From an uncultured Massilia sp. (lineage in GTDB: Bacteria; Pseudomonadota; Gammaproteobacteria; Burkholderiales; Burkholderiaceae_D), in the NCBI GenBank assembly GCA_913778765.1, contig CAJYXO010000071.1:2148-66147 (forward strand): a stretch of DNA of 64,000 nt, written 5' to 3'. The position numbers and the translations under genes are program-made. Of this stretch, positions 10,501-63,924 are shown one piece after another. Within the stretch, counting starts at the first letter, position 1; each line of letters starts with the position of its first letter. The notes below the pieces were generated by a model. That model searched no databases. It was not told the origin of the DNA and saw only the letters and a list, made by a program, of their open reading frames with translations.

Positions 10501-10503
10501 GGT

Positions 10504-14366: not shown

Positions 14367-14979
14367 CATCCGCCGGCGCCATTTCGAGGCGCTGTACGCC
14401 GCCAGCGAGGACCCGTGGGACGTGCGCGGCAGCTGGTACGAAAGGCGCAAGCGCGCCCTGCTGCTGGCCAGCCTGGGCAAGCCGCGTTACCGCAGCGCCT
14501 TCGAGCCGGGTTGCGGCAACGGCGAGATGAGCGCGGCCCTGGCGGCGCGCTGCGAGCGGCTGCTGGCCTGCGACGGTGCAGGCAGCGCGCTGGCGGCGGC
14601 ACGCAAGAGGCTGACCGGCGTGGCCGCCGCCGGCGCCGTCGACTTCGCCGAGCGCCACCTGCCCGGCGGCTGGCCGCGCGGCGTCCTCTTCGACCTGATC
14701 GTGATCAGCGAGTTGGGCTACTACCTCGACCCCGCCGCCCTGCGCACGCTGTTCGACCTGGCCGCCGACAGTCTCGACGCCGACGGCGAACTGGTGCTGT
14801 GCCATTACCTGCACGATTTCGACGACCGCGCCAGCACGACGGCGGCGGTGCACGCGGCGGCCGACGCCACGCCGGGGCTGGCGCGCGTGCTGCGGCATCG
14901 CGAGCGCGATTTCCTGCTCGAGGTGTGGCAGCGCTCATCTGCAGCCGCAACCGCAGGCGCATCGGGAGGCCAGCCATGA
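14350..14979 (+). CDS. NodS-like class I SAM-dependent methyltransferase
   Basis: 209 aa. N-terminal YAASEDPWDVRGSWYERRKRALLLASL and SAM motif I EPGCGNGEMS are typical of the NodS family. Overlaps the PIG-L gene by 17 nt. Confidence 0.75.
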   Translation: MTAHDDIRRRHFEALYAASEDPWDVRGSWYERRKRALLLASLGKPRYRSAFEPGCGNGEMSAALAARCERLLACDGAGSALAAARKRLTGVAAAGAVDFAERHLPGGWPRGVLFDLIVISELGYYLDPAALRTLFDLAADSLDADGELVLCHYLHDFDDRASTTAAVHAAADATPGLARVLRHRERDFLLEVWQRSSAAATAGASGGQP

Positions 14980-17992: not shown

Positions 17993-18087
17993 GCCCGCTG
18001 CCTGTTTGCCTGGTATCGCATCCAGACAGCGTAAGGGCTGAGCGGCCCAGGCTTATGTACGCCAGCGTACGCATGCGCGTAATTGTC

Positions 18088-18269: not shown

Positions 18270-20135
18270 TCAGATGTCGAGGTGCGAAATCAGCAAACGC
18301 CGGCGCTCGCTGTCGCCCTCGCCGTTGTCGCCGCCGTTTTCCTGGCCCAGCGAGACGCCCACCGCCATGATGTCGATGAGGAGCAGCTGCAGGATCCGCG
18401 AAATCATCGAGAGGAAGGTGGTCGAATCCTCGCTGTGGTCGACCGCCAGGCAGATGCTGGCCTTCCGCGCCAGCGCCGATTTGCTGCTGGTGATGGCGAT
18501 GACGTCGGCGCCCGCCGCGCGCGCGGTCTCCACGGCGGACAGCAGTTCGGGCAGCTGGCCGGTGGTCGAGATCGCGATCACGACGTCGCCGGGGCCCAGC
18601 AGTTCGGCCGCGAGGCTGAACAGGTGCGAATCGCCGTAGGACGAGGTCGGGATGCGGAAGCGGAAGAACTTGTGCTGGCCGTCCAGCGCCACCACGCGCG
18701 AATTCCCCATCGCATAGAACTCGACGCGCTTGGCCTTACGGAGAATCTCGATGGCGCGGTCGATCGAGTTCACGTCGAGCTGGTCGCGGAACTTCAGGAT
18801 CGCCGACACCGTATTGTCGATGACTTTCGCCGACAGGTCGTGGGTGCTGTCGGTCATCCGCACCTGGCTGTGGCGCACCGGGATGGTGCCGGTCAGGCTG
18901 CCCGCGAACTTCAGCTTGAAGTCGGCCAGGCCGGAAAAGCCCAGCGAGCGGCAGAAGCGGATCACGGTCGGCTGGCTGACGTCGGCCAGCTTCGCGATCT
19001 CGGCGATCGGCTCGGACAGCACCTTGCGCGGGTGCTCCAGCACCAGGGTCGCGACGCGCTGCTCGGCCGGCGAGAGCTCGTGCTGCAGGTGCTGCACACG
19101 CTCCATCAGGGTGTTCGCGCCGGTGCGGCCGCGCAGGTGTTCGGACAGGATGCTGGCCACGCCGTACAGCGCCGGATTCGGCGTCATGATCACATAGGTC
19201 GGGATCTGCGCCAGGTAATCCGAGAAGCGGCCCTTGGCTTCGAAGCGGGCGCGGAACGGCGAGGTCGCGAACCACTGCGCCACGCGCGGCACGATGCCGC
19301 CGCCGATGAAGATGCCGCCGAATGCGCCGAGGGTCACCGCCAGGTTGGCCGCGGCGCCGCCCAGCATGCCGGCGAAGCATTCCAGCACTTCCAGGCACAG
19401 CGGGTCGTTCTGTTCGATCGCGGCATTGGCGATGTCGGCGGCCGTGCGCGCGGGCGCCTGCACGCCGTTGCGCTGCGCCAGCGCGCGGTAGATGATCTCC
19501 ATGCCGGGGCCGGAAATCAGGCGCTCGTTCGATACGTGCTGCCATTCGCGCCAGGCGTATTGCAGGATCGCGAACTCGCGCTCGTCGGCCGGCGCGAAGT
19601 TGACGTGGCCGCCCTCGCTGCCGAGGGTGACGAAGCCATCCAAGGTCGGGATCACGCCCGACACGCCGAGGCCCGTGCCCGGACCGAGCACGCCGGCCAC
19701 CGCATGCGGCTGCGGCTTGCCGCCGCCGATCTGCAGCAGGTCTTCCGGCTTGAAGCCCGGCAGCGCCATCGCCAGCGCCGTGAAGTCGTTCACGATCAGC
19801 AGCGTGGTCAGGCCGAGGGCGCGCCGCACTTCGTCGGTCGAGAACTGCCAGTCGCGGTTGGTCATGCGGATGAAATCGCCGCTGATCGGGTTCGCCAGCG
19901 CGAAGGCGGCGTGGCTGATGCGCAGCTCGCCCAATTGCGACAGATAGGCGTTCAGCAGCGGGACGATGCCGGGATAGTCGTCGCACAGCAGCACGGCGAC
20001 GTTGCGCAGCACGCCCGGCGCGCTCTCCAGCGCAAAGCGCGCGTGGGTCGCGCCGATGTCGGCCAGCAGGCGCGGTCCGTCGGCATAGGCGGCGCGCGGT
20101 TGCTTCTGTTCGGTGGTGTCGGGCTCGATGGTCAT
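18270..20135 (-). CDS. glk: Bifunctional glucokinase / RpiR(HexR-like)-family regulator, paralog 2
   Basis: Same architecture as 2378..4237, collinear over the full length and identical at most positions by eye, including an identical HTH segment LADVSQPTVIRFCRSLGF. Start set at MTIEPDTTEQ (20135). The track ORF's extra 34 codons translate a REP element (..GSRLRGND..). Confidence 0.85.
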   Translation of the reverse strand: MTIEPDTTEQKQPRAAYADGPRLLADIGATHARFALESAPGVLRNVAVLLCDDYPGIVPLLNAYLSQLGELRISHAAFALANPISGDFIRMTNRDWQFSTDEVRRALGLTTLLIVNDFTALAMALPGFKPEDLLQIGGGKPQPHAVAGVLGPGTGLGVSGVIPTLDGFVTLGSEGGHVNFAPADEREFAILQYAWREWQHVSNERLISGPGMEIIYRALAQRNGVQAPARTAADIANAAIEQNDPLCLEVLECFAGMLGGAAANLAVTLGAFGGIFIGGGIVPRVAQWFATSPFRARFEAKGRFSDYLAQIPTYVIMTPNPALYGVASILSEHLRGRTGANTLMERVQHLQHELSPAEQRVATLVLEHPRKVLSEPIAEIAKLADVSQPTVIRFCRSLGFSGLADFKLKFAGSLTGTIPVRHSQVRMTDSTHDLSAKVIDNTVSAILKFRDQLDVNSIDRAIEILRKAKRVEFYAMGNSRVVALDGQHKFFRFRIPTSSYGDSHLFSLAAELLGPGDVVIAISTTGQLPELLSAVETARAAGADVIAITSSKSALARKASICLAVDHSEDSTTFLSMISRILQLLLIDIMAVGVSLGQENGGDNGEGDSERRRLLISHLDI

Positions 20136-20180
20136 TGCGCTAGGATACCATTGATTGATTGACACCAAAACCATGAATCT

Positions 20181-20266
20181 GTCGTTCCCGCGCAGGCGGG
20201 AACCCAAGTTTTGCGTGAGCTGCCGATACGCTTGCAAACTTGGATCCCCGCCTTCGCGGGGATGAC
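20181..20266. repeat. Bipartite REP/MITE-like element, copy 1
   Basis: Left module GTCGTTCCCGCGCAGGCGGGAACCCAAGTT (20181..20210). Right module in inverted orientation AACTTGGATCCCCGCCTTCGCGGGGATGAC (20237..20266). Each module holds its own GC hairpin. Spacer is 26 bp. Confidence 0.8.
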
Positions 20267-53098: not shown

Positions 53099-53233
53099 TC
53101 AACCATAAGCTAAAGGCATGGATATGTATCTTTTTTGTATAACTTCCTGAAAAAGTGTATTTCTCGGTAGCAAGCGGCGTAAAATGTCTGGTTAAGTCCC
53201 ATCGTGGGACCATCGACACGTCCTCGAGGAATT

Positions 53234-55303
53234 ATGTTGGCAGGCCACAAACCCGCATCGCACAAGCATCGCAGCCGCGCGCTGCTGGCGGCGCTTTTGC
53301 TGGCGTCCGGCCTCGCCTTCGCCGATGCGCCCGCCCCGCTGGCCCAGCGCCTGGCCGACATCCAGGACCTCGGCCGCTTCACGCCGCTGCGCGCCCTGCC
53401 CATCCTGTCGCAGATGGAGCGCGAAAGCCGCGCCGCGCCGCTGGCCGAGAAGGCCGCCTTCCTCGACCTGGCCTGCAAGATCCACGACAGCCTCGGGCAT
53501 TACGAACTCGCCAACAAACTGTGCGACGAGTTGATCCTGCTCGGCCAGCAGCACGCCGACAACACGATCCTCGCGCGCGGCATGCTGGACAAGGGCTATG
53601 TGATGTTCCACCTGAACGAACTGGCCCAGTCGCACCAGCTGATCTGGCAGGCGGAAAAGCTGGCGGTGGGCAGCCGCGACATGGACCTGCGGGTACGCTC
53701 CACGATTTCCTCGGGCCAGTCGTATGGCGAGGACGGCAACTTCCCGATGGCCCTCAGCAAGCTGCAGGCGGCGGCCACGCTGGCGCGCCAGAGCGGCCAG
53801 CCGATGCTGATGACGATCGCCTTCAATTCGCTGGCCTATCTGTACAACCAGATGCGCGAGCACGACAAGGGCTTCGAGGCGCTGAAGGAAGCCTACCGCG
53901 CCGCCGAGAGCATCGACTCGCCCGGGCGCATGGCCACCCTCAAGAACACCGAATACGCCTTGTCGATCGATTCCGGCCAGGTGCAGCGCGGCCTGAAGGC
54001 CCTGCTGGCGGCGGTCGAACTGGAACGCAGGATCGGCGCCGGCCCGATGGTCGCGACCTCGCTGGTCAATTTGTCCGACTGCTACCTGAAGCTGAAGGAT
54101 TACCGCAACGCCCTCTCGTACGCCGAGCAGGCGCTGGCGCAGGCGCGCCTGATCAACAACGACAGCTCGATGGCGACCGCGCGCATGAACATCGGCCAGG
54201 CGCTGCTGGCGATGGGCCGCCTGGCCGAAGGCAAGAAGAACATCGAAGCGGGCATGGCCTGGTACGAGCAGCAGGGCGACAAGCCGACGCTGCAGGATGC
54301 CCTGGCCGAATACGGTGAAGCGCTGGAGCGCGCCGGCGACCTGCCCGGCGCCCTGAAGGCCTACCACCGCGAACGCGCGCTGTCGAACGAACTGTTCGAG
54401 CAGCGCCGCCAGAAGGCGATGCTGGAGCTGCAGGAAAAATACGAGTCCGACAAGCGCCAGCGCCAGATCGAACTGCTGCGCCAGGAAAACCAGGTCAAGA
54501 GCACCGAGATCGACAATCGCCGCCTGCAGCAGCGCGTCTGGTGGCTGCTGGCGCTGGTGTTCGCGCTGTCCGCGGTGATCGTCTACTTCCTGTACCGCAA
54601 AGTGCGCCAGGCCAACGCCCGGCTCGAGGAAAAGAACCTGGAGCTCAAGCAGCAGAGCGCGCGCGATCCGCTGACCGCCCTGTACAACCGCCGCCACTTC
54701 CAGGAATTCATGCGCGGCCACCAGGAGATCGCGCAGACCGGCGCGACCGAGGAAACCGTCAGCGCCATCTACCTGATGGACGTCGACCACTTCAAGCACA
54801 TCAACGACACCTACGGCCACGGCGCCGGCGACGCGGTGCTGCGCGAAATCGCCGACGCCCTGCGCGAGATCCTGCGCGAGACCGACATGATCGTGCGCTG
54901 GGGCGGCGAGGAATTCCTGGCCTTCCTGCCGGCGGTGCCGCGCAGCAGCCTGGACGACGTCGCGCGCCGCCTGCTCAGCGGCATTCCGGCGCGCAGCATC
55001 GACTACCAGGGCGTCAAGCTGTCGGTCAACGTCTCGATCGGCTTCGCGCCCTTCCCGCTGGCGCCGGGCGGCAAGCCGATATCGTGGGAGCGCGCCGTCA
55101 ACCTGGTCGACATGGCCCTCTACCTGGCCAAGGGCCACGGCCGCAACCGCGCCTACGGCGTGCAGGGCTTCGCCCGCGATACCGGCATGAGCATCGAACA
55201 GATCGAGCAGGACATCGAAGGCGCATGGCGCGCCGGCAGCATCGAACTGTCGGTCGTGCAGGGCAACTGGACGCCGCCGCAGCTGCAGGCGGTGTCGGCG
55301 TAA
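53234..55303 (+). CDS. Diguanylate cyclase: signal peptide, TPR-like periplasmic/sensor region, TM helix, coiled coil, GGDEF domain
   Basis: Start at MLAGHKPASHKHRSRALLAALLLASGLAFA. TM WWLLALVFALSAVIVYFLY. Active site GGEEF, with an RxxD I-site (RETD) five residues upstream. Confidence 0.88.
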   Translation: MLAGHKPASHKHRSRALLAALLLASGLAFADAPAPLAQRLADIQDLGRFTPLRALPILSQMERESRAAPLAEKAAFLDLACKIHDSLGHYELANKLCDELILLGQQHADNTILARGMLDKGYVMFHLNELAQSHQLIWQAEKLAVGSRDMDLRVRSTISSGQSYGEDGNFPMALSKLQAAATLARQSGQPMLMTIAFNSLAYLYNQMREHDKGFEALKEAYRAAESIDSPGRMATLKNTEYALSIDSGQVQRGLKALLAAVELERRIGAGPMVATSLVNLSDCYLKLKDYRNALSYAEQALAQARLINNDSSMATARMNIGQALLAMGRLAEGKKNIEAGMAWYEQQGDKPTLQDALAEYGEALERAGDLPGALKAYHRERALSNELFEQRRQKAMLELQEKYESDKRQRQIELLRQENQVKSTEIDNRRLQQRVWWLLALVFALSAVIVYFLYRKVRQANARLEEKNLELKQQSARDPLTALYNRRHFQEFMRGHQEIAQTGATEETVSAIYLMDVDHFKHINDTYGHGAGDAVLREIADALREILRETDMIVRWGGEEFLAFLPAVPRSSLDDVARRLLSGIPARSIDYQGVKLSVNVSIGFAPFPLAPGGKPISWERAVNLVDMALYLAKGHGRNRAYGVQGFARDTGMSIEQIEQDIEGAWRAGSIELSVVQGNWTPPQLQAVSA

Positions 55304-55326: not shown

Positions 55327-55411
55327 GTCATTCCCGCGAAGGCGGGAATCCAGGTTCTGCATGCCTGACGAAACTCGGACAAACTTGGGTTCCCGCCTGC
55401 GCGGGAACGAC
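55327..55411. repeat. Bipartite REP/MITE-like element, copy 5
   Basis: GTCATTCCCGCGAAGGCGGGAATCCAGGTT (55327..55356), spacer, AAACTTGGGTTCCCGCCTGCGCGGGAACGAC (55381..55411). Lies between the convergent GGDEF and lipoprotein genes. Confidence 0.85.
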
Positions 55412-55420
55412 GGAGGTGCT

Positions 55421-55717
55421 TTAACGCGCCGCCTCCTGCATCTTCTCGCCCGCCTGTTCGACCTTCTCGCCGACTTTCGCGGTTGCCCGGTCCAGGTTCT
55501 CGCGTGCTTCCGCGGTAGCCTCCTTCGCCTTCTCGCGCGCACGTTCGGCCGCCGCGTTGGCCTTGACCACCTGCTGCTGCACGGCGCTCTGGACCTTCGC
55601 GCCGGCGTCGTCGACGGCCTTGCCGGCCTGCTGGGCCGGGCCCATGCCGTCCGACGAGGGATTGCAGCCGGCCAGCAATGCGGCCAGGCATAGCGCTGTT
55701 GTCATGGCTGGTTTCAT
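55421..55717 (-). CDS. Small lipoprotein with amphipathic-helix (LEA/apolipoprotein-like) repeats; last gene of the tubulin-like operon
   Basis: 98 aa. Lipobox LLAGC after MKPAMTTALCLAA. The mature part is K/E/A-rich and helical (AERAREKAKEATAEARENLDRATAKVGEKVEQAGEKMQEAA). Confidence 0.6.
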   Translation of the reverse strand: MKPAMTTALCLAALLAGCNPSSDGMGPAQQAGKAVDDAGAKVQSAVQQQVVKANAAAERAREKAKEATAEARENLDRATAKVGEKVEQAGEKMQEAAR

Positions 55718-55741: not shown

Positions 55742-56731
55742 TTAGCGATTCCTGTTGTCCGGCACGGCGCCGCCTGAGCCGGCGCCCGAGCCCGTGCTGC
55801 CGCCGCCCGACGATCCGAGCGCGCCGCGCGGCGCCGCCAGCGGATGCTCGCGGTGCGCCATCTCCTCGCGGCGCGCGGCCTCGATCCTGTCGTTCAGCGC
55901 GCGCGTGTCCTGGTCCTCGCCCCAGCGCTTCGTGAACGCCTGCAGGCGGCTGCGCGCCTTGTCGAAGCCGGATGCCGCCAGCGCCGATTCGACCGCAACG
56001 CTGGCGTCGTTCCAGGCCTTGCTGCGCTGGCGCCGCTTCGTACAGGCGGCGGCTTCGTCGTTGAGCGCCTGCTGCAGGCGCTGCAACTGCGCCGGCGTGG
56101 CGCGCGACTTGCGCAGCGCAATCAACTCGGCCTGCGCATCGCCGGCCTTGCACTCGCGCGCCAGGGCGATCGCGGCGTCGATGCGGCGCTCGATCCGCTT
56201 GCTCGACGGCTTGGCCACGAACCACAGGCCCCACAGCACGGCCAGCGCCAGGATCCACCAGCGCAGGCGGATCGGCCTGCGTCCCGGCGGACGCGCGGCC
56301 AACGGCGGGCGCGGCACTTCCTGGCGCGGCGGGACCGCCTCGGCGGCGGGCTTGCCGCCGCGGCCGAAGGCGGTGGCGCTCGGTGCGCCGGCGCCGGCCT
56401 GTGAAGCTGCCTGTGCGCCTGTTGTGCGTGCGGCAGCGGACGGCGCGGCAGCCGGGGCAACCGGCGGCGCGGCAGGCGCCACCTCGGCCGCCGGCGCATC
56501 CGACCAGCCGGACAGCGCCGCCGCCGCGCTTGCGCCCGCAGCCGCTGCCGCGGCCTTGTCTGCGGCAGCCGCCGCCGCTGCGGATAGAGCGCCGTCGGGC
56601 ATCGCCGCCGCGGGCGTGCGCGCACCGCTGCGCGCCTGCGCAGTCCCGCACCACGGACAGAAGTTCACAGGCCGCGGCGTGGGCCGGCCACAGGCGGCAT
56701 TGATGCATCGGTAAATCGTTTCGTCTGCCAC
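55742..56731 (-). CDS. Zn-ribbon / Ala-Pro-rich linker / single-TM / helical ectodomain protein
   Basis: 329 aa. N-terminal C-x4-C...C-x2-C (YRCINAACGRPTPRPVNFCPWCG). About 130 aa of A/P-rich low complexity. TM WWILALAVLWGLWFV. C-terminal helical domain. Starts 9 nt after the tubulin-like gene stop. Confidence 0.6.
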   Translation of the reverse strand: MADETIYRCINAACGRPTPRPVNFCPWCGTAQARSGARTPAAAMPDGALSAAAAAAADKAAAAAAGASAAAALSGWSDAPAAEVAPAAPPVAPAAAPSAAARTTGAQAASQAGAGAPSATAFGRGGKPAAEAVPPRQEVPRPPLAARPPGRRPIRLRWWILALAVLWGLWFVAKPSSKRIERRIDAAIALARECKAGDAQAELIALRKSRATPAQLQRLQQALNDEAAACTKRRQRSKAWNDASVAVESALAASGFDKARSRLQAFTKRWGEDQDTRALNDRIEAARREEMAHREHPLAAPRGALGSSGGGSTGSGAGSGGAVPDNRNR

Positions 56732-56740: not shown

Positions 56741-59700
56741 TTATTCCGGATCGGGGATGCCGTCGTCCGGATCGGGAATCGCGGCATCCAGCCCGCCCGC
56801 CAGCTCCGGGAGCTCGCCGACCGTCTTCCACTTGTCCAGGCGCGGGTTCCACAGCATGTTCCAGATGCGCGTGCCGCGGTCGATCTCGCCGCGCGCCAGC
56901 TGCTGCGCCACCTCTTCCAGCGCGTACGGGCCGCGCTGGGCGCCGTTCACGAACAGCTTGAAGCGCGCCGCGCCGGTCGCGGCGGGTTGCAGGTCGGCGC
57001 CATGGCCGAAGCCATCGCCGCCCAGGCCCGCCGCCGTGCCGGCCGGCGCGCCCGACCGGCGTTCGAGGGCCTGCAGCGCGCGCGCCTCGCTGGCGAGGAA
57101 CTCGGGCCGGATGATGCGCTTGTCGACCGGGCGCTCGACCTCCCAGTGGTAGGCGTCGCTGGCGGAATCCGGCACCGTCTCGCTCCACAGGTCGAGCTGG
57201 GCCAGGGCCGCCTCGACCTGGGCCGGCGTCAGCTCGGGATGCAGCGAGGATGCGCGCCGCATCCACTGGTCGTACAGCCGGCGCGCCGTGATGGTCGGCA
57301 GCGACGGCGACGGCAGCTGGGCGCCGGTCTCGTCGACTTCCAGCTTGGGCTCGTACACGCGCAACTGGTAGTGGCGCATCAGCGCCGCCAGCAGCGCCAG
57401 CCGGTAGGGTCCCATGTTCCCGAGGCGCTGGCGCACGGCGGCGATCACCTGCTCGCGATAGTAGGGCGGCAGGCCGTTCGAGCGGATCGCGTACTCGTTG
57501 CCGATCTGGAGCCATTCGCCGGAGCCCGGCTCGACCTCGAACAGGTACTGGCCGCGCGGCTGGAAGGCCGCTTCGCGGTCGCCGGCATCCTGCTTGCGGC
57601 GGATGACGCCCAGCGCCACCGCCTCCAGGTACCATTCGTAATCGTCGGCCAGGCGGTTCAATTCGTCCATCGAGGGCGAGATCGGATGCCGGAAGCGGGT
57701 CGAATCGAAATGCAGGTGGGTCGGGATCTTCGGGTTTTCGATCTGGTAGGAGGCGCGCCAGGTCGGCAGGCCGCGCAGCACCGTCATCGGATAGCCGGAC
57801 AGCTCGATGTAGCACACCGCTCTGCCGGTCACGCCGGTGTTGACGATGGCGACCGCGTCGCCGTGCAGGAATCCGGTCGGCACGGCGGCGCGGATCTCGG
57901 CTTCCAGCCGGCGCCAGGCGGCCGGGTCGCCGACGCCGATGAAGCACTTGAACTGGTCGGCGCTGGGCGTGAACTCGGCCGAGAAGCGCGCGTTAATCCA
58001 CGGCATGGCGCTGCGGATCCACTCGCTGAACACGCGGTGGCGCTCCTGCGGCGACATCGCCCCCAGGCGTTCCAGCAGCGGATCGACCGCGTCGCCCGGT
58101 TCGAGTCCGGCGGCCTGCATGCTGGAGAGCTGGGTCTGCGCGCGGCGGAACAGCTTCAGCAGCAGGTCGGCGCGGGTGCGTTCGTCGCCGAGCTGGGGAA
58201 AGAGCTGGGCCGAGCCGCCGAATTCCAGCAGCACTTCTTCGGCCCAGCCGCTGACGTCGCTCGTGAGCCTGGGCGGCGCCGGCTGCGTATCGCCGGTGAG
58301 CTTCAGGTAGGTCGCGTGCTCGTGGCGGGCGTCGTCGCGCAGCTGGCCGATGCGCTGGTCGCAGGCCGCCAGCATTGCGCCGACGTTGCGCCGGCCTTCC
58401 TGGAATTCGCCGGCGACGCCGCTCCACTGGGCCTGGCCCTGTTCGTCGGTGCCCTGTGGATTGCCGAGCCAGGCCGACATGCTGTGCATGACGTCGATCG
58501 CCTGGCCCGCCGCCACCGACAGCAGGTGGAAGCGCAGGTAGTCGGCGATGTCGCGCTTCAGGTGGTTCATGACTTCGCGCGCCTGGGCATCCTTGCCGAA
58601 CAGGCGGCCGGCGGCCTGCGACAGGTTGTTCAGCGATTCTTCGACCTGGCGCGTGCGCAGGGCGTCGCGGATGTCGCGGTAGCGCTTGCCGTTGCGCTGG
58701 GCGTTGGCGAGGTCGCGCTGGGCCAGCCTGGCCTTGATCTGTTCCAGCAGCGACAGCACGAATTCCAGGCCGCCCTGCTTGCGGTCGTCGAGCAGCATGT
58801 ACAGGCGCCCGCGCACGTTCAGGCGCAACTCCGCCAGCAGCTCGCCGGTCTTGCGCTTGATGCGGTCTTCGCTGGTCTCGGCGGTGGCGCCGGCTTCGCG
58901 GATGGCGTCCCGTTCCAGGTTGGGCAGCAGCTCGACCACCTTTTCGCGCCACAGCTTCAGGTCGTAGGACGCCATGATGCGGTCGATCTCGAGCTGCACC
59001 TTGCTCTCGACCCGCTCCAGCAGCGAGCGCTGGTCCTTGTCCATCAGGAGCATGTCGGTCAGCGCGTATTCCTGGAACGGCGTGACGTCCACCGTGCCCT
59101 TGCGGAAGTCGGGGAATTCCGAGAACGGATGCTCCTGCAAACCCATCTGGTCGCGCATGAAGCTGTCGCGCTCCGCGTCGGTGGCGCGGCGCGCGGCCTT
59201 GCCGTCGGTGCTGGCCAAACCGAAGAAAGCCTTCACCATCAAGGCCGCCAGCTCGTAGGCGCGGATATCGTCGCGCAGGCTTTGCTGGGTGTCGAGCACC
59301 GACTGGCCGAAGGCCGAATAGACCTTCGAGTAGGACAGGCGCATGTCGCCGAAGCGCTGCTCCGGCACGCGCGGATTGTAGGGGCCGAGCTTGTGCTGCT
59401 GCTGGTTCACCGCCACCGAACGCTTGCGGTTGGCGAAATCGGCCGAAGCGAAGTCTTCGAACAAGGTGTCCGCCACCATCTGGTAGACGTCCTTCACGTC
59501 CTGGGTCGCCTTGTTGGCCAGGTTGGCGGTGTCGACGAAATAGACGTCGTCGAAGGGCGCGCCGCGCCCGGTCACGCTGTCCGGGTCCATCCACTGCACG
59601 CGCGCGTTCATGTCGCGCATGGTGGTCTCGAGTTCCATCAGGGTCGCGTAGGCATTCGCCTCGGTGCGCTCCTTGTTGGCCTTCGCATAGCCCGAAGGCA

Positions 59701-60421
59701 GGAACATGACCAGGTCGACCTGGCTGCTCGAAACCTCCTGGCTTGCGATGGCCTTGGCGAGCCAGCCCAGGTCGATGGCGCTGCCGGCCCCGGTGCCGCC
59801 GGCGTTCGAGGCGATGACGACGATGCGGAATTTACTGGTATCGACCTGCAGCCCGAGGCGCTGGTAATTCTCCTTGCGCTCGTTGCCCGCATTCGAGCTG
59901 AGGAAGTTCAGCGCGCCCTTGATGCGGCCGCGCAGCTTGGGGTATTTGTCGAACAAATACAGGCGCGCCAGCGCGCGGATCTGGCCGGCGCCCTTGGACG
60001 GATCGATGCCCAGCGAGCGCAGCTTCTTGGGCCGCAGCGGCATCCAGTTTTCGATGAGCGGGAAGCGCGCCAGGCTGTCGTCGGATTCGTGGTACTGCGG
60101 CAGGTCGAGCGGTTCCACCAGGCGTTCTTCGTCGCTCAGCTTGACCAGCTCGAACCAGGGATCGGTGCGCTGCGACTTGCCTTCGTCGATGATGGCCTGG
60201 TTGTCGAGGTCGAAGTGCAGGAAGCGCGCCACCGGGAAGTCGGCGATCGACTCCACGCGGGTCGGATGCTGGCGGTTCCACACCGCCGACAGGATGCGGC
60301 GGCGGATCCGCATCATGACTTCCATGCCGGTGCCGCCGGCGCCGATGAACAGCGTCGGGCGCAGGTCGACCTTGAGTTCCGCTTTCTTGTTCAGCGCCGA
60401 GGGATCGGGAAAATCTGCCAT
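56741..60421 (-). CDS. Giant tubulin/FtsZ-superfamily GTPase-like protein (Tubulin_2-type) with C-terminal GYF_2-like domain
   Basis: 1,226 aa. T1-like loop LFIGAGGTGMEV (nt 60326..60343). Exact tubulin signature [SAG]GGTG[SA]G as AGGTGAG in VVIASNAGGTGAGSAIDLG (nt 59783..59803). T5/T6-like FLPSGY...NAYATLMEL. C-terminal FKLFVNGAQRGPYALEEVAQQLARGEIDRGTRIWNMLWNPRLDKWKTVGELPEL fits GYF_2/DUF4339. Confidence 0.75.
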   Translation of the reverse strand: MADFPDPSALNKKAELKVDLRPTLFIGAGGTGMEVMMRIRRRILSAVWNRQHPTRVESIADFPVARFLHFDLDNQAIIDEGKSQRTDPWFELVKLSDEERLVEPLDLPQYHESDDSLARFPLIENWMPLRPKKLRSLGIDPSKGAGQIRALARLYLFDKYPKLRGRIKGALNFLSSNAGNERKENYQRLGLQVDTSKFRIVVIASNAGGTGAGSAIDLGWLAKAIASQEVSSSQVDLVMFLPSGYAKANKERTEANAYATLMELETTMRDMNARVQWMDPDSVTGRGAPFDDVYFVDTANLANKATQDVKDVYQMVADTLFEDFASADFANRKRSVAVNQQQHKLGPYNPRVPEQRFGDMRLSYSKVYSAFGQSVLDTQQSLRDDIRAYELAALMVKAFFGLASTDGKAARRATDAERDSFMRDQMGLQEHPFSEFPDFRKGTVDVTPFQEYALTDMLLMDKDQRSLLERVESKVQLEIDRIMASYDLKLWREKVVELLPNLERDAIREAGATAETSEDRIKRKTGELLAELRLNVRGRLYMLLDDRKQGGLEFVLSLLEQIKARLAQRDLANAQRNGKRYRDIRDALRTRQVEESLNNLSQAAGRLFGKDAQAREVMNHLKRDIADYLRFHLLSVAAGQAIDVMHSMSAWLGNPQGTDEQGQAQWSGVAGEFQEGRRNVGAMLAACDQRIGQLRDDARHEHATYLKLTGDTQPAPPRLTSDVSGWAEEVLLEFGGSAQLFPQLGDERTRADLLLKLFRRAQTQLSSMQAAGLEPGDAVDPLLERLGAMSPQERHRVFSEWIRSAMPWINARFSAEFTPSADQFKCFIGVGDPAAWRRLEAEIRAAVPTGFLHGDAVAIVNTGVTGRAVCYIELSGYPMTVLRGLPTWRASYQIENPKIPTHLHFDSTRFRHPISPSMDELNRLADDYEWYLEAVALGVIRRKQDAGDREAAFQPRGQYLFEVEPGSGEWLQIGNEYAIRSNGLPPYYREQVIAAVRQRLGNMGPYRLALLAALMRHYQLRVYEPKLEVDETGAQLPSPSLPTITARRLYDQWMRRASSLHPELTPAQVEAALAQLDLWSETVPDSASDAYHWEVERPVDKRIIRPEFLASEARALQALERRSGAPAGTAAGLGGDGFGHGADLQPAATGAARFKLFVNGAQRGPYALEEVAQQLARGEIDRGTRIWNMLWNPRLDKWKTVGELPELAGGLDAAIPDPDDGIPDPE

Positions 60422-60449: not shown

Positions 60450-60914
60450 TTACCGGCGGCCGATGAGCAAGGCCGCGATGAGGGCCACCACGCCGATCAC
60501 GACCAGCGGCCCGGTGATCGCCAGGGTCAGGTACTTGGCCGCATTGATGATCGCCAGCACCGCCGCGAAGGACAGGAAAGCCAGTCCGACGAACAGCAGC
60601 CAGCCGGCGCTGCCGGCCGAAGACGGCGCCACGCGCTTGACCACCAGGTGGTGCACGTAGGCGTTGCGCACGAAGAAGTAAATCACCAGCAGCACCAGCA
60701 GGATCGCACCGCCGATCGCCAGGTCGCGCGCCGAGGTGTCGCGCAGCGGCGCCGCGCTGGGATTGGTGGCGCCGCCCGGCGCGATCTCGACCGGTTGACT
60801 GGCGGTGTCGGGCGCGGTCTTCGGCAGCCCTTCCTGGGGGGTGGTCTGCTGGGTCTGGCCCGGCAGCTTGAAGCCGGGGTCGGTGGAATCCGGCGAGGTC
60901 TTCTTGTCTTGCAT
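60450..60914 (-). CDS. Small polytopic membrane protein (3 predicted TM helices, disordered N-terminus)
   Basis: 154 aa. A P/T/Q-rich ~60-aa N-terminus, then LAIGGAILLVLLVIYFFV, WLLFVGLAFLSFAAVLAIINAA and LAITGPLVVIGVVALIAALLIG. Stops 28 nt before the tubulin-like gene. Confidence 0.6.
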   Translation of the reverse strand: MQDKKTSPDSTDPGFKLPGQTQQTTPQEGLPKTAPDTASQPVEIAPGGATNPSAAPLRDTSARDLAIGGAILLVLLVIYFFVRNAYVHHLVVKRVAPSSAGSAGWLLFVGLAFLSFAAVLAIINAAKYLTLAITGPLVVIGVVALIAALLIGRR

Positions 60915-60937: not shown

Positions 60938-62431
60938 TCATCGTCCCAGCCGGACCTGGGCGCCTTCGCGCAGGTCGATCAACTGGTGGCCGAACAGCGT
61001 CGTCTTCAGGCGGGCCACCTGGTTGCCCGCCTTGTCGTAGATCGGTTGCGTGGCGCCGGAACGCGTGTGCACGGTGCGCAATTCGTCTTCCACGACCAGC
61101 TGCACGCGGCGCGGCCGGCCGTAGGCGTACGCTGCGCCGGCGCCCGCCGCCAGCAGGGCCAGCACGCCGCCCAGCAGCGCCATCAGCGGCCCCGAGCCGT
61201 AGTGCACCCTCACTTCCAGCGGCAGCACCGCCGTCGATGCCTGGATTTCGGCGGGCGGCGTAAAGATCTCGGGCAGCGGATCGCCGGGGAACAGCGCCGC
61301 CATGCGTTCGCGGAAGGCTTGCGACAGCACCAGGCGCTGATTCGCCAGGTGCAGTTCGATCCGGCCCGGCAGCACATAGGCCGAGCCGGCCGACTTGAGC
61401 GCCTCCATCGACCATTTGCCGGGCAGTTTCGCCACCGGCAGCTGCATGCTGGCGGACAGCGGCTCGGGCTTGCCCGGCGCCAGCTGCTTCACGTCGCGCC
61501 GCGCCAGTTCGATCGGCCGGTTCTCGCCGGCCAGCACCGAGCGCGCGCTGAGGGTGGCGTCGGCGATCGTGTACGGATACATCGTGTTCTCCAGCTGCCA
61601 CTGGATGCGTGTGCTGGGCGCCACCGCATCCGGCTCGACGTCGGCATGCAGGCGGCCGCCCGCATCCATCGCCAGCGCCACGCCGGCCGCGCCTTCGACG
61701 CGGCGCGGCACCAGGCGCACGGTGTCGCGGTCCAGCGGCTTCAGGCGCGCCGGCGGCTCGGTGATCACGCGCTGCACGCGGCCGGCAGCCAGCAAGGCAT
61801 CCAGCGCGCGCGCGCCCTCCTTCCCGACCGCGAACACATACACCATCAGGCCGTTCGCGCTGTAGTGCGCGCCCTGCACCTTCATGCGCAGCGGGAAAGC
61901 GAGCGCCTTGTCGATCGCGGCGCCGCGGTGGATCAGCGCGTAGAACTCGCGGTTGCGGGCGCTGGTGGCCTGGTCGTTGTTCGGGCTGTTGCGGTTGTTC
62001 GTCACCAGCCACACCAGGCCCGGCTTGCCGCCGAGGACCCGGTTCAGGGCGGCGTCGACGGCTTCGCCGAGGTCGGTATCGGCCAGCGCCTGGCCGCCGG
62101 GCTTCCTGGCCAGCTGCAAATCCTGCAGGGCCGCCTGGACGTGGGCGTGGACCGTCTTCGCATCGACCTGTTCGGACAGCAGGCCTTTCGGCGACGGCGC
62201 CCCGGGCAGCGACTGGTTGAAGGCGGCCAGCACCAGCGCGTCGCCGGGCTGCACCACGTTGCTGACCAGTTCCGTCACCAGCGGCTTGAAGCTCGAGGCC
62301 GGGTCGCTGTAGAAGGGCTCCATCCAGCCCGAGTTCTGGACCAGCACGACATGCGGGATGGCGAAGGCGGGCGCGGCGGCGCCCAGCAGGCTTGCCGCGA
62401 GGACCAGCATCGAAGCGAGCGCGCGCCTCAC
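60938..62431 (-). CDS. Exported vWA-like protein with degenerate MIDAS, C-terminal TM anchor and short cytoplasmic tail
   Basis: The GTG start at 62431 overlaps the upstream stop (GTGA). Signal peptide VRRALASMLVLAASLLGAAAPAFA. vWA-like strand/helix pattern VVLVQNSGWM (DxSxS replaced by QxSxW), ALVLAAFN, ADTDLGEAVDAAL, LVWLVTNNRN. TM LMALLGGVLALLAAGAGAAYAY, then a ~60-aa tail. The track ORF (to 62578) is longer. Confidence 0.5.
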   Translation of the reverse strand: MRRALASMLVLAASLLGAAAPAFAIPHVVLVQNSGWMEPFYSDPASSFKPLVTELVSNVVQPGDALVLAAFNQSLPGAPSPKGLLSEQVDAKTVHAHVQAALQDLQLARKPGGQALADTDLGEAVDAALNRVLGGKPGLVWLVTNNRNSPNNDQATSARNREFYALIHRGAAIDKALAFPLRMKVQGAHYSANGLMVYVFAVGKEGARALDALLAAGRVQRVITEPPARLKPLDRDTVRLVPRRVEGAAGVALAMDAGGRLHADVEPDAVAPSTRIQWQLENTMYPYTIADATLSARSVLAGENRPIELARRDVKQLAPGKPEPLSASMQLPVAKLPGKWSMEALKSAGSAYVLPGRIELHLANQRLVLSQAFRERMAALFPGDPLPEIFTPPAEIQASTAVLPLEVRVHYGSGPLMALLGGVLALLAAGAGAAYAYGRPRRVQLVVEDELRTVHTRSGATQPIYDKAGNQVARLKTTLFGHQLIDLREGAQVRLGR

Positions 62432-63924
62432 GACAGCGCTTCCAGATTCCAGCCGCGGATCCGGTTCCAGTCGGGGTGGTGCAGCCACAGGCGGTTGGCG
62501 TACACGAAGGGCAGGCACGCGAGCGGACGCGAAAGGCGTGCGATCTCGTCGAGGATGACGTTGCGCCGGCCTATCCATTCGACCGTGGTGCGGGCGATCA
62601 CGCGGTCGGCCAGCGCTTCTTCGGCGCGGCCGGTGTATTTATGGAAGCGCAGCACCAGCCCGCTGGGCTGGGCGCGGTTGTTGTTGAAGCTGCGCAGCAG
62701 CGGCAGCACCAGCGAATCGTCTTCGTTCGGATCCTCGACGTGCGCCCCCAGCCAGGGATCGTCGACCACCGGATGGCCGCGCCGGAACAGCAAGTTGGCG
62801 AAGCCCAGGCGCGCGCCGTCGATCGGCTCGCGCTGCGGATGCTCGACGCCGAGTTCGAGGAAGCAGTAGGACTGGCCGTCATGCCCGATCAGCCACATGC
62901 GGCCGTCGCGGCTCAGGGTCGGTCCGCCGAACTGCAGGCGCGGCAGCCAGGTGTCGGGCCAGGGCAGGAAGCGCGGCGCCTCGCCCGGACGCCACAGCAG
63001 CTGGCCCTCGTCGTGCAGCCAGGCCAGCTGGCCGTCGTAGCCGATCGGGCGGCTCCAGCCGGACAGCGGCAGCGCGCCGCACTCGTATTGCGGTCCCGGC
63101 GCCAGTTCGGCATCCAGCGTGGCCAGCACCAGCACGCCGGCATGCCCGCGCACCGGGCAGGCCAGTTGGCGCCGCATGCTGCCGGGCGCCGCCACCATCG
63201 GCGCGGCCAGCACGGAATCGAGCCGGAAGCTCTCGCTGATCGGGTTGATCCACAGGCGGTACAGGCCCTGGGCGGTCGGCACCAGGGCGACTTCGCCGCG
63301 CCGCGGTTCCAGCGACGGCAGCCAGCCATAGTCGGAAGCGCCGAAGCGCAGATCGGCCGTTCCCTCTTCCGGCACCAGCACGTGCCACAGCTCGCCCAGC
63401 GGATCCCAGTACTGCAGCACGCCGCGTCCCGGCGCCAGGGCCAGCAGGCGCTGTTCCTGGAAACCGTAGCCGGCGGCGATGAACACGCACTCGGCGTTCG
63501 GCGGCGTCGGCATCGACGTGTCGAAGCGGCCGACCACAGGCGCGGCCGGACGCTCTTCGAGACTGTCGCCGAGCGGCAGCGAGGTGACCGGCAGGCCGTG
63601 CGGCACGTGGCGCGGCAGCGCCTGGTCCGCATACGGCCCCCACCACTCGGGGCGGCGCTGCTGGCGCCCGGCCAGCCGTTCGAGCGGGCTGCCGCAGGCG
63701 GGGCAGAAGGAAAAGCCTTCGGGATAGATGGGCGAGTGTTCGCAACCTTCGGTATCGCAGGCCGGCAGCGAAGCGCCGAGCAGGTGCGCGAAGTCGGCCA
63801 TGCGTCCGCGCGCATGACGGCTCCAGTCGATCCGGCCCAGCCCTTCGCTGGCCGCCAGTTCGAACTGCCCGCTGCCCTCGTCTTCCAGCCAGACGCTGGC
63901 TGGAGTTTCCCATCGGTATGGCAT
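62428..63924 (-). CDS. Zn-ribbon protein with repeat-rich (beta-propeller-like) body; first gene of the tubulin-like operon
   Basis: 498 aa. C-x4-C...C-x2-C (ACDTEGCEHSPIYPEGFSFCPACG). Then recurring G-x-L/W-W strands (GVLQYWDPLGELWHV, GLYRLWINP, GQLAWLHDEGQLLWRP, DGRMWLIGHDGQSY, NRLWLHHPDW). No family recognised. Confidence 0.5.
   Translation of the reverse strand: MPYRWETPASVWLEDEGSGQFELAASEGLGRIDWSRHARGRMADFAHLLGASLPACDTEGCEHSPIYPEGFSFCPACGSPLERLAGRQQRRPEWWGPYADQALPRHVPHGLPVTSLPLGDSLEERPAAPVVGRFDTSMPTPPNAECVFIAAGYGFQEQRLLALAPGRGVLQYWDPLGELWHVLVPEEGTADLRFGASDYGWLPSLEPRRGEVALVPTAQGLYRLWINPISESFRLDSVLAAPMVAAPGSMRRQLACPVRGHAGVLVLATLDAELAPGPQYECGALPLSGWSRPIGYDGQLAWLHDEGQLLWRPGEAPRFLPWPDTWLPRLQFGGPTLSRDGRMWLIGHDGQSYCFLELGVEHPQREPIDGARLGFANLLFRRGHPVVDDPWLGAHVEDPNEDDSLVLPLLRSFNNNRAQPSGLVLRFHKYTGRAEEALADRVIARTTVEWIGRRNVILDEIARLSRPLACLPFVYANRLWLHHPDWNRIRGWNLEALS

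Follow-up and report, generated by a model that had tools for sequence, protein, structure and literature searches.

The 1,226-residue protein encoded by gene D of the 64,000-nucleotide stretch of DNA analyzed here (the window) is a genuine bacterial relative of tubulin and FtsZ, though a very divergent one. It is a member of the FtsZ-like-1 branch (FtsZl1, Pfam Tubulin_2) of the tubulin/FtsZ superfamily, and its clade consists of ∼1,200-residue proteins that carry a terminal GYF_2 adaptor domain. We propose, with moderate confidence, that this FtsZl1 member serves as a cytoplasmic scaffold, regulated by GTP, in a complex that spans the envelope and that it is tethered by its GYF_2 domain to a proline-rich sequence.

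Family membership and signature motifs of gene D

The family assignment is based on a Pfam scan, in which gene D matched PF13809 (Tubulin_2) with an E value of 1.5e-48 and a score of 166 bits (cut-off 27). According to Santana-Molina et al. 2023 (PMC9871819), Tubulin_2 corresponds to the FtsZ-like proteins of Makarova and Koonin 2010 (PMC2875224), who described FtsZl1 proteins with the same architecture as gene D and predicted that they function in membrane-associated multi-subunit complexes. Gene D is thus not a new kind of tubulin, its family having been described in 2010, and the implication in the preliminary description that its size and architecture had no precedent does not stand. What goes beyond the 2010 paper is the existence of GYF_2-tailed homologues of ∼1,200 residues and a fixed gene module around gene D. 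A search of the accessible literature found no experimental data for any Tubulin_2/FtsZl1 family member.

An exact tubulin signature had been reported from the letters of the DNA, and this was borne out. Translated in all six frames, the window has no match to PROSITE PS00227, [SAG]GGTG[SA]G, other than the motif AGGTGAG (residues 207-213); ∼0.027 matches are expected by chance from residue composition. The upstream glycine loop, LFIGAGGTGMEV (residues 24-35), is likewise where T1 was thought to be, with GGTG directly after the first strand. Both motifs are conserved. Among 46 representatives (identity only 21-46%, plus one at 74%), 41 retain the T4 motif and 45 the T1 motif GG[TS]G; the corresponding counts among closer homologues are 140 and 142 of 142. 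Gene D orthologues are >80% identical across Massilia/Telluria, full-length homologues outside these genera are 30-46% identical, and GYF_2-tailed homologues of ∼1,200 residues are present in Proteobacteria, Nitrospirota, and Chlorobium. NCBI lists the orthologues as "tubulin-like domain-containing protein" and JGI as "Tubulin like/GYF domain 2".

Table 1. Features of gene D and its operon (positions in the window; AF2, AlphaFold2)
Feature	Position	Strand	Basis or remark
Gene A, 498-aa cytoplasmic protein, unknown fold	62428..63924	-	
Gene B, 497-aa exported protein	60938..62431	-	GTG start, 4-nt overlap with gene A stop codon
Gene C, 154-aa membrane protein	60450..60914	-	2-3 hydrophobic helices, proline-containing N-terminal region
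Gene D, 1,226-aa FtsZl1/Tubulin_2-family protein with GYF_2 tail	56741..60421	-	Stop codon 56741..56743
D: tubulin/FtsZ-like GTPase domain, aa 24-377	59291..60352	-	Pfam Tubulin_2, AF2, Foldseek
D: T1 loop GAGGTGM, aa 27-33	60323..60343	-	Directly after strand S1, at start of helix H1
D: T3-like loop KGAGQIR, aa 143-149	59975..59995	-	Precedes a helix in AF2 model
D: T4 tubulin signature AGGTGAG, aa 207-213	59783..59803	-	Between strand S4 and helix H4
D: T5-like loop LPSGY, aa 241-245	59687..59701	-	After strand S5; LPxG[FY] conserved
D: S6 and T6-like motif VYFVDTAN, aa 293-300	59522..59545	-	Strand S6 plus following loop, AF2
D: basic motif RKRSVAVNQQQHK, family-specific, aa 332-344	59390..59428	-	End of helix at H7 place
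D: helical stalk, aa 466-800	58022..59026	-	AF2; includes helices of 54 and 43 residues
D: conserved C-terminal alpha/beta domain, aa 801-1122	57056..58021	-	AF2; motifs such as GRAVCYIELSGYPM
D: disordered linker, aa 1123-1152	56966..57055	-	All coil; pLDDT <50 at aa 1123-1149
D: GYF_2 (DUF4339) adaptor domain, aa 1153-1207	56801..56965	-	Pfam; family profile against 7z3c
D: acidic, proline-containing C-terminal tail (...AIPDPDDGIPDPE)	56744..56800	-	
Gene E, 329 aa	55742..56731	-	Zinc ribbon aa 9-31, membrane helix ∼aa 154-176, helical C-terminal part
Gene F, 98-aa putative lipoprotein	55421..55717	-	LAGC lipobox; last operon gene
Terminator-like hairpin, T-rich tail	55330..55349	-	∼70 nt 3′ of gene F stop codon

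Fold and nucleotide loops of the N-terminal domain

The GTPase-like part was expected to cover about the first third of the protein, in agreement with the extent of the Tubulin_2 match. In the AlphaFold2 model of gene D (pLDDT 82.9, pTM 0.70), this domain has the order S1-H1-S2...S4-H4-S5-H5-S6-H-H-S7. The best 50 Foldseek matches in the PDB were all alpha, beta, or gamma tubulins at a probability of 1.00 (E values of 6e-5 to 7e-4; 326-599 aligned columns, mostly ∼380-400), with TM-scores per target of only 0.31-0.41 and identities of ∼9-14%. The viral library gave matches to phage FtsZ/tubulin structures at probabilities of 0.94-1.00, with one low-probability match ranked among them. The high-probability matches were tubulin/FtsZ-superfamily structures only, and the model resembles tubulin and FtsZ rather than a generic P-loop NTPase. 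Sequence-only PDB searches did not reach FtsZ or tubulin, and hhalign aligned the T4-T5 block alone, weakly, the T4 block giving an E value of 0.033 against E. coli FtsZ and 0.002 against human beta-tubulin. In these alignments, the T5-like loop was paired with KPFNFEG of FtsZ and VPSP of tubulin.

Conservation of the T1, T3-like, T4, T5-like, and T6-like motifs extends to homologues of 21-46% identity. Residues G29, G30, and G32 of T1 are invariant in the 46 diverse representatives, and GA[GA]Q[IVL]R is kept at the T3-like position in 41 of these and in 139 of the 142 closer homologues. The GAG core of KGAGQIR appears to resemble the T3 loops of FtsZ and tubulin. Similarly, VYFVDTAN, in which D297 and N300 are near-invariant among homologues, may correspond to xxDNEA of tubulin and IPND of FtsZ. 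GTP binding is probable for the N-terminal domain (residues ∼20-345), because its nucleotide-contacting loops, T1 to T6, are kept. A T7 loop with a catalytic acid did not emerge from the homologue alignment; the loop after the H7-equivalent helix is variable, and no conserved acidic residue was found in it. For this reason, canonical head-to-tail, polymerization-activated GTP hydrolysis by gene D is unsupported. The T6-H7 region of FtsZl1 was not identifiable in 2010 either (PMC2875224). A Pfam scan of gene D gave no match to FtsZ_C or Tubulin_C.

Stalk, C-terminal domain, and GYF_2 adaptor

The ∼700 residues after the GTPase domain had been described as helical. This holds for residues 466-800, which are 77% helix in the model, but not for residues 801-1122, which form a mixed alpha/beta domain (46% helix, 16% strand). 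The stalk has no match in Pfam, and the alpha/beta domain has no Pfam or PDB sequence match. The disordered linker that follows is variable in sequence even inside Massilia. The resemblance of the last ∼55 residues to GYF_2 (DUF4339) was confirmed by a match to Pfam PF14237 at residues 1158-1207 (E value of 5e-9, 36.2 bits, cut-off 25.8), and the family profile matched the experimental structure of the GltJ/AgmX GYF domain from Myxococcus (PDB 7z3c) with an E value of 4.6e-12. Of 61 full-length homologues in the fetched loci, 57 have the domain. Most of the residues in the tail (I1215, P1216, P1218, D1220, P1223, D1224, and P1225) are invariant in 28 Massilia/Telluria orthologues, and PPPxxxxPPPL occupies the tail position in other clades.

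Gene context of gene D

Gene D is located in an operon, A-F, with intergenic gaps of -4 to 28 nt in the window. The locus is chromosomal, in a Massilia (Oxalobacteraceae), and the genes around the operon are ordinary chromosomal carbohydrate-metabolism genes; a neighboring TPR-GGDEF gene is shared with the Massilia sp. WF1 locus. The B-C-D module is kept in ∼50 loci from Beta-, Gamma-, Delta-, and Alphaproteobacteria, Nitrospirota, and Chlorobium, most of which also contain gene A. Gene D has no membrane segment and should therefore be cytoplasmic.

Gene A, which has no match in Pfam or PDB, is upstream of B-C-D in most beta-, gamma-, and deltaproteobacterial loci. It contains a zinc-ribbon-like CPACG motif here that is absent from most of its orthologues. 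Gene B, which adjoins gene D in nearly all full-length loci, is predicted to consist of a signal peptide, an alpha/beta domain, two beta-sandwich (Ig-like) domains, a membrane helix, and a small cytoplasmic beta domain (AlphaFold2 model, pLDDT 90). Its motifs include LVQNSGWM, ADTD, and TNNKNSP. The alpha/beta domain is possibly vWA-like, as suggested by one weak Foldseek match to the vWA structure 4fx5 (E value of 6e-4) and a Pfam vWA match at an E value of ∼0.09 in one of 19 family members. In most loci, gene C separates B from D. The Ala/Pro-rich linker of gene E ends in PPRQEVPRPPLAARPPGRRP, and an E-like gene with a zinc ribbon, a proline-rich linker, and a membrane helix directly follows gene D in many loci, other genera included. 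The proline content of this linker is 6-44% across loci, and gene E was undetectable in some of the gene D homologue loci. Gene F is also found in Massilia sp. WF1; other genera have a different lipoprotein, of 230-255 residues, in its place.

Comparison with known systems

The FtsZl1 proteins of the 2010 paper (PMC2875224) have, like gene D, an N-terminal GTPase domain with T1, a GGTG[ST]G T4 motif, and family-specific T1-T4 inserts, a T6-H7/T7 region that is difficult to recognize, and a long middle part, helical or coiled-coil, followed by a separate C-terminal domain, for a total of ∼1,000-1,200 residues. Their operons also include membrane and vWA-type proteins. The clade of gene D differs in its terminal GYF_2 domain, which PMC2875224 does not mention, and in a constant set of partners of its own, A-B-C-(D)-E; among the proteins listed in 2010, the proteobacterial Pnap_3261 and Lcho_4358 (∼1,000 residues) have OmpA neighbors instead, and further members have GTPase or kinase neighbors. 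In addition, the C-terminal domain is mixed alpha/beta in gene D and "mostly alpha-helical" in FtsZl1. FtsZl2 (e.g., PFL_1302 of Pseudomonas fluorescens), a second divergent FtsZ-like family from the same paper, is restricted to Proteobacteria and, unlike gene D, has ∼726 residues and all loops including T7, without a coiled coil or conserved gene neighbors.

Gene D shares with tubulin and FtsZ the Rossmann-like GTPase fold and the strand-loop-helix motifs T1, T3, T4, T5, and T6, and with eukaryotic tubulin, its best structural match in the PDB, the exact PROSITE signature. In contrast, it is ∼3 times longer, contains a ∼110-residue helical insert between S2 and S4, and is without the conserved T7 catalytic loop, NxDxx[DE], and the C-terminal domains of both proteins (Pfam).

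The GYF domain of gene D is homologous to that of GltJ (AgmX), which together with AglZ belongs to the gliding focal-adhesion machinery of Myxococcus (PMC11135422; 7z3c). There, ITC and NMR established that the GltJ GYF domain binds a proline-rich sequence (PMC11135422). Both GltJ-AglZ and D/E combine a zinc ribbon and a single membrane helix with a flexible linker, a proline-rich sequence, and a long cytoplasmic protein with coiled coils, parts that in Myxococcus serve a GTPase-regulated envelope-spanning complex. However, the parts are reversed, as cytoplasmic gene D has the GYF domain and membrane gene E has the zinc ribbon and proline-rich linker. The GTPase also differs, being tubulin-like and fused in gene D and the Ras-like MglA in Myxococcus, and no Glt or Agl motor genes are near the gene D locus.

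FtsZ has a C-terminal linker and a conserved C-terminal peptide that binds FtsA/ZipA. By analogy, the disordered linker and small conserved module of gene D could tether it to membrane partners, although the module is a folded 55-residue GYF_2 domain with a proline-containing tail rather than a short amphipathic peptide, and the partners differ.

Proposed function and alternatives

Gene D is most likely co-transcribed with five partners, A, B, C, E, and F. In the proposed scaffold mechanism, its GYF_2 domain would bind a proline-rich stretch in the cytoplasm, for which the gene E linker is the likeliest candidate, in the manner of the GltJ GYF domain and the AglZ proline-rich sequence in Myxococcus. 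GTP-dependent self-association or a conformational change of gene D could then organize or remodel the inner membrane and the gene B periplasmic module. Other candidate ligands of the GYF domain are gene D's own tail and the gene C N terminus.

In an alternative that we consider possible, if rather doubtful, gene D is a non-polymerizing GTP-dependent switch or regulator that signals to membrane partners through conformational changes of its tubulin-type nucleotide pocket and never forms protofilaments. The lack of a conserved T7 acid, the lack of an FtsZ_C/Tubulin_C domain by Pfam, and the large family-specific T1-T4 inserts (residues 78-189) are consistent with a switch, as is a bulky stalk and C-terminal domain that could obstruct longitudinal contacts, and "do not form filaments" is one of the three possibilities given for FtsZl1 by Makarova and Koonin (PMC2875224). 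On the other hand, all superfamily members characterized by 2010 form filaments (PMC2875224), the conserved basic motif RKRSxAVNQxQHK at the H7/T7 place could make a non-canonical contact, and long helical hairpins are a typical feature of scaffolds that self-assemble.

It is unlikely that the A-F module is an anti-phage or conflict system, in which the NTPase, with its zinc-ribbon and vWA-type partners, would detect an invader and respond by damaging the membrane. The conflict systems surveyed in PMC7159879 are reported to center on such combinations, several A-F partners are membrane proteins, and the module is patchy across phyla. However, none of the five proteins scanned (A-E) matched a PADLOC model or a PHROG, and domain scans of the operon proteins found no nuclease, protease, TIR, pore-forming, or other effector domain. 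The genus-wide identity of gene D and the TPR-GGDEF neighbor shared with WF1 indicate vertical inheritance rather than a defense island, and the surroundings are housekeeping genes of carbohydrate metabolism.

It is very improbable that gene D is a tubulin for DNA segregation or cell division like TubZ, PhuZ, or FtsZ, even though it belongs to the same superfamily and the viral Foldseek matches are phage FtsZ/tubulin proteins. Gene D is chromosomal, neither a TubR-like DNA-binding partner nor centromere repeats were evident among the called genes, and there were no PHROG matches. The conserved partners are all membrane or exported proteins, gene D is three times the size of FtsZ/TubZ and lacks their C-terminal domain by Pfam, and a division role for FtsZl1 was argued against in 2010 because conventional FtsZ co-occurs with the family (PMC2875224).

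Finally, glycine-rich motifs are frequent in translations of high-GC DNA, and FtsZ/tubulin escaped the sequence-only PDB searches, but a chance motif in an unrelated Rossmann-like or P-loop NTPase is practically refuted by the low expectation for the window, the Tubulin_2 match, the tubulin- and FtsZ-only high-probability Foldseek matches (PDB and viral), and the conservation of the signature in 41 of 46 distant homologues alongside the T1, T3-like, T5-like, and T6-like motifs.

D belongs to the FtsZl1/Tubulin_2 family

The 1,226-aa reading frame of D and the position of its AGGTGAG, in which the preliminary description had seen a tubulin signature, were verified, and the glycine loop noticed upstream (LFIGAGGTGMEV) lies at aa 24-35. 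Translating the window in all six frames gives a single match to the PROSITE tubulin signature [SAG]GGTG[SA]G, the one in D, against ∼0.027 expected from residue composition. The reading of the signature as a chance motif is refuted, and the assignment of D to the tubulin superfamily is borne out by a Pfam match to Tubulin_2, by the modelled fold, and by the conservation of the loops. The match to PF13809 (Tubulin_2) covers aa 24-377 and profile positions 1-336 of 356, with an E-value of 1.5e-48 and 166.3 bits against a cut-off of 27. The proposed GYF_2 tail is likewise present, as PF14237 matches aa 1158-1207 (E 5e-9, 36.2 bits, cut-off 25.8). No Pfam family matches the 776-aa stretch that makes up the middle and C-terminal parts of D. 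The exact sequence of D has neither a record nor a name in the contig index or in its own cluster. The closest orthologues, from Massilia/Telluria, are 81-94% identical and carry the NCBI name 'tubulin-like doman-containing protein'; the window accordingly represents part of a Massilia chromosome. Since such proteins are already annotated as tubulin-like, D as such is no discovery.

Santana-Molina et al. 2023 (PMC9871819) equate Tubulin_2 proteins with those that Makarova & Koonin 2010 called 'FtsZ-like', and D belongs to the FtsZ-like 1 (FtsZl1) family of the latter authors. [quoted passage not shown] The architecture, which the preliminary description had thought unlike anything known, is thus the hallmark of a published family. 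The proteobacterial members listed in 2010 (Pnap_3261 and Lcho_4358) are ∼1,000 aa long with OmpA neighbors, and the same paper (PMC2875224) does not mention a GYF domain, whereas the clade of D is GYF-tailed. Our literature search found no functional study of the Tubulin_2/FtsZl1 family.

Two other placements were considered. FtsZl2 proteins are ∼700 aa long, retain every loop (T7 among them), and lack both a coiled coil and conserved neighbors (PMC2875224). With its 1,226 aa, helical stalk, missing T7 acid, and conserved operon, D is ruled out as a member of that group. A role as a segregation or division tubulin is also unlikely. TubZ and PhuZ are located on plasmids or phages with a TubR-like adaptor and a centromere; D is not so placed, and its chromosomal housekeeping context, lack of PHROG matches, and membrane-protein partners speak against a TubZ/PhuZ identity.

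Predicted structure of D

An AF2 model of D spanning aa 20-1219 was built on 142 homologues (pLDDT 82.9, pTM 0.70); its segments are listed in the table. A Foldseek search of the model against the PDB returned 88 matches at E-values up to 1e-3. A non-tubulin Rossmann-like fold, for which the preliminary description had allowed, is not what the model shows: the top 50 matches are all alpha, beta, or gamma tubulins (probability 1.00, E 6e-5 to 7e-4). These alignments span 326-599 columns (mostly ∼380-400), with a modest TM-score per target of 0.31-0.41. Too much should not be made of the eukaryotic tubulins that dominate this list, since tubulin chains are very numerous in the PDB. Among viral structures, phage FtsZ/tubulin proteins gave long, high-probability matches (1.00) with a TM-score per target of up to 0.43, and a phage GYF_2 protein matched the tail of D.

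A phmmer search of the PDB with the N-terminal 440 aa of D returned nothing relevant, and an hmmsearch with a 46-sequence family profile matched the GYF tail only and did not reach FtsZ or tubulin, so that sequence alone cannot link D to either. When the D family profile was compared by hhalign with E. coli FtsZ (E 0.033) and human beta-tubulin (E 0.002), whose identities were verified against the PDB, only T4-H4-S5-T5 aligned, and weakly. D has no match to Pfam FtsZ_C or Tubulin_C. In the model, aa 368-452 form a strand-helix-helix-strand-strand unit, which could be a reduced intermediate domain of the FtsZ_C/Tubulin_C type. The T6-H7 region and the FtsZ C-terminal domain were also not identifiable in the FtsZl1 family (PMC2875224).

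Operon genes, predicted segments of D and B (AF2 models), and conserved motifs of D
Feature	Window position (nt)	Strand	Protein position (aa)	Description
A	62428..63924	(-)		cytoplasmic, no fold match
B	60938..62431	(-)		GTG start, 4-nt overlap with stop of A
C	60450..60914	(-)		small membrane protein
D	56741..60421	(-)		tubulin-like, GYF_2 tail
E	55742..56731	(-)		zinc ribbon, proline-rich linker, membrane helix
F	55421..55717	(-)		putative lipoprotein
Hairpin	55349..55330	(-)		terminator-like
D, S1			23-28	followed by T1 and H1
D, S2			65-70	
D, helical insert			78-189	GAGQIR loop inside
D, S4			198-205	followed by T4 and H4
D, S5			233-241	followed by H5
D, S6			292-297	
D, two helices			309-344	
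D, S7			368-377	
D, helical stalk			466-800	77% helix; helices of 54 and 43 residues
D, mixed alpha/beta domain			801-1122	
D, disordered linker			1123-1152	followed by GYF domain, then tail
D motif, T1				PT(L/V)F(I/V)GxGGTG; G29, G30, G32 invariant
D motif, T3-like			143-149	KGAGQ(I/V)R
D motif, T4	59783..59803	(-)	207-213	AGGTG(S/A)G (PS00227)
D motif, T5-like				LPxG(F/Y), after S5
D motif, H5			∼255-265	ANxYAALxELE
D motif, S6/T6-like				VY(L/F)xDxxN; D297, N300
D motif, family-specific			332-344	RKRSxAVNQxQHK
B, signal helix				
B, alpha/beta domain			∼26-214	
B, two beta-sandwich domains			227-409	
B, membrane helix			413-437	
B, small beta domain			439-494	cytoplasmic

Conservation of the nucleotide loops

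We searched 1.84 billion cluster representatives exhaustively and obtained 1,557 relatives of D at E-values up to 1e-3, of which 136 were found at E-values up to 1e-30. Many are ∼1,200 aa long and align end to end with D at 30-46% identity. Motif conservation was scored in 46 diverse representatives, with the 142 homologues as a second set. The T4 motif proved to be conserved, matching in 41 of the 46 and in 140 of the 142, and in the model of D it is preceded by a strand and followed by a helix, as S4 and H4. Similarly, the T1 sequence GAGGTG (aa 27-32) follows the first strand and is modelled at the N-terminus of H1. D keeps nucleotide loops T1 to T6 within a fold that is predicted to be tubulin-like.

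The T7 loop and its catalytic acid, which the preliminary description had singled out for checking, gave the opposite result. Across the 46 representatives, the QHK and YSxxGQ motifs enclose a variable loop without a conserved acid, and D359 occurs in only 14. As no conserved acid follows RKRSxAVNQxQHK, the canonical T7 catalytic residue is not identifiable in the D family, in agreement with the 2010 analysis of FtsZl1 (PMC2875224).

D is encoded in a conserved operon

The six genes A-F are separated by intergenic gaps of -4 to 28 nt. Massilia sp. WF1 has the same six-gene set, encoding proteins of 500, 501, and 150 aa, a Tubulin_2/GYF_2 protein, and proteins of 302 and 98 aa. By tblastn, the B-C-D adjacency is kept in ∼50 loci with a full-length D homologue, which come from Beta-, Gamma-, Delta-, and Alphaproteobacteria, Nitrospirota, and Chlorobium, and A lies upstream of B-C-D in most non-alpha loci. 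E is too divergent for tblastn; a gene of the same layout is found directly 3' of D in many loci, and in many loci a lipoprotein gene follows. The operon in which D sits is widely conserved and encodes membrane and exported proteins, and the GYF-tailed clade with its partner set is an undescribed subgroup of a known family. The genes around the operon are ordinary chromosomal carbohydrate-metabolism genes, and D has been inherited vertically within Massilia.

A reading of A-F as a defence system is unlikely. None of A, B, C, D, and E matched the PADLOC-DB 2.0 defence-system models at E-values up to 0.01, an effector domain was not found, and D belongs to the core genes of the genus. Searches of NCBIfam and PHROGs likewise returned nothing for A-E.

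The locus scan used one genome per species and returned 80 loci, with patterns that are unable to match a D of the window type. In Massilia aurea (L016), M. niabensis (L029), and Massilia sp. MP_M2 (L059), D lies at 10001..13640 of the locus and is 41-45% identical to D of the window. This version is of the Janthinobacterium/Duganella-like type, with the same A-B-C-D order, and may be either a replacement or a second paralogue. Loci L064-L082 (Ignavibacteria, Latescibacterota, Acidobacteria, Desulfonema) match over ∼10001..11200, corresponding to D aa ∼10-400 only, and B and C neighbors are absent; these relatives, shorter in the first three groups, are other Tubulin_2 branches with different partners.

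Converging on the operon end is a gene at 53204..55303 (+) for a diguanylate cyclase of TPR-GGDEF type, 699 aa long, that contains a membrane helix, and the same neighbor is present in Massilia sp. WF1. A regulatory link between c-di-GMP and the tubulin-like operon is conceivable.

Partner proteins

B was modelled by AF2 (pLDDT 90, pTM 0.79). Its conserved motifs are LVQNSGWMEPF, ADTD, and W(I)xTNNKNSP, and the QNSGWM/ADTD/TNN pattern tentatively resembles that of a vWA domain whose metal site is degenerate. The vWA structure 4fx5 (E 6e-4) has the top query TM-score of the Foldseek list for the B model, one UniRef entry is named as vWA, and Pfam VWA and VWA_2 each match 1 of 19 members at marginal E-values of 0.085 and 0.099. 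We call B vWA-like only tentatively because the Foldseek matches are weak and mixed, comprising Kir channels, GH3 enzymes, and this one vWA structure. FtsZl1 genes occur in operons with genes for vWA, GTPase, OmpA, kinase, and lineage-specific membrane proteins (PMC2875224); compared with these, the membrane partners are clear here, whereas the vWA assignment of B is tentative. The cytoplasmic all-beta domain of B (aa ∼438-497, 60938..61120 (-)) is confidently modelled and well conserved (R441, G448, R451, K456, F458, G468, and G472, among others) and might serve D or A as a docking site.

C has two to three hydrophobic helices; no membrane segment is predicted in D. A, for which 16 orthologues gave no Pfam match and no PDB profile match was found, might at a guess be a beta-propeller, judging by its invariant W/G/P pattern. 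A zinc-ribbon-like CPACG motif in A (63700..63730 (-), aa ∼67-81) is not conserved, the orthologue consensus being xPxTG, and may be a recent gain in Massilia or non-functional. Across the loci, proteins of the E layout begin with a CxxC...CP(Y/F)CG zinc ribbon and continue with a linker of 60-170 aa containing 6-44% proline (in the window it includes PPRQEVPRPPLAARPPGRRP), a patch of basic residues, a single membrane helix, and a C-terminal domain.

The GYF tail and its candidate ligands

At an E-value of 4.6e-12, the D family profile matches 7z3c, the GltJ/AgmX GYF domain solved by NMR, and in the AF2 model of D, the GYF region (aa 1153-1188) consists of strands and a helix. D thus carries a GYF_2 adaptor on a disordered linker. 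A GYF domain is present in 57 of 61 D homologues; with so little variation, its co-variation with the E-like gene is uninformative. In most homologues, PPP stretches flank the domain. In the Massilia clade these are absent, and the tail of D (aa 1208-1226, 56744..56800 (-)) reads IPDPDDGIPDPE / AIPDPDDGIPDPE, with residues that are mostly invariant in 28 Massilia/Telluria orthologues.

Attia et al. 2024 (PMC11135422) showed that the bacterial GYF domain of GltJ binds AglZ, a coiled-coil protein, through the proline-rich sequence of the latter, and reported an adjacent zinc ribbon in ∼44% of bacterial GYF proteins. Compared with the GltJ-AglZ pair of Myxococcus, the same elements are split differently here, such that D has the coiled coil and the GYF domain and E has the zinc ribbon, the proline-rich linker, and the membrane helix. 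Candidate proline-rich ligands for the GYF_2 domain lie in the E linker, at the N-terminus of C, and in the tail of D itself.

Discussion

We propose that D binds GTP and would assemble, or change conformation, at the inner membrane on its cytoplasmic side. Binding of its GYF domain to the proline-rich sequence of E could provide the tether, or alternatively binding to the N-terminus of C, to the tail of D, or to the cytoplasmic domain of B, and D so tethered may organize an envelope-spanning complex. A more ambitious reading, on which we would place rather long odds, is that A-F encode an undescribed GTP-driven envelope-spanning machine built around D. In such a machine, D would assemble through a non-canonical interface, a suggestion that stems from the missing T7 acid and the conserved RKRS...NQxQHK helix found instead. 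GYF_2 would clip D to E at the inner membrane, an arrangement that mirrors how GltJ and AglZ are linked in the focal adhesions of Myxococcus, and D, through B, would move or organize a periplasmic module of alpha/beta and Ig-like domains. It is plausible that D acts, rather, as a non-polymerising GTP switch. If the machine does exist, it would represent a new class of bacterial cytoskeleton-coupled envelope apparatus, occurring in many Proteobacteria including Pseudomonas, Stenotrophomonas, Paraburkholderia, and Janthinobacterium.

No branch of the tubulin/FtsZ superfamily is more divergent than FtsZl1/Tubulin_2, to whose description we add structural support for its fold, a clade of GYF-tailed proteins with a fixed envelope module of five to six genes, and the tethering hypothesis. 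With its strong conservation, fixed five- to six-gene module, and specific hypothesis of a GYF_2-to-E-linker tether, this clade is a well-defined system in which GTP binding, polymerization without a canonical T7, and a membrane role of FtsZl1 can be addressed, and it occurs in the cultivable genera Massilia, Janthinobacterium, Pseudomonas, Paraburkholderia, and Stenotrophomonas.

Other features of the window

Rfam and tRNA scans of the window found nothing. Two paralogous genes 14 kb apart, at 2378..4237 (-) and 18270..20237 (-), encode proteins of 619 and 655 aa in which a glucokinase is fused to an RpiR-type HTH_6 + SIS regulator; their cluster includes a pullulanase, an alpha-amylase, a trehalose-6-phosphate synthase (GT20), and a TonB-dependent receptor. 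At ∼12000..18000, the window has a GC content of 74%, against ∼66% elsewhere, and long overlapping ORFs on both strands. Pfam identifies a PIG-L deacetylase domain, a NodS-like methyltransferase, and a family-2 glycosyltransferase in this block, which may be a glycosylation cluster of different origin.
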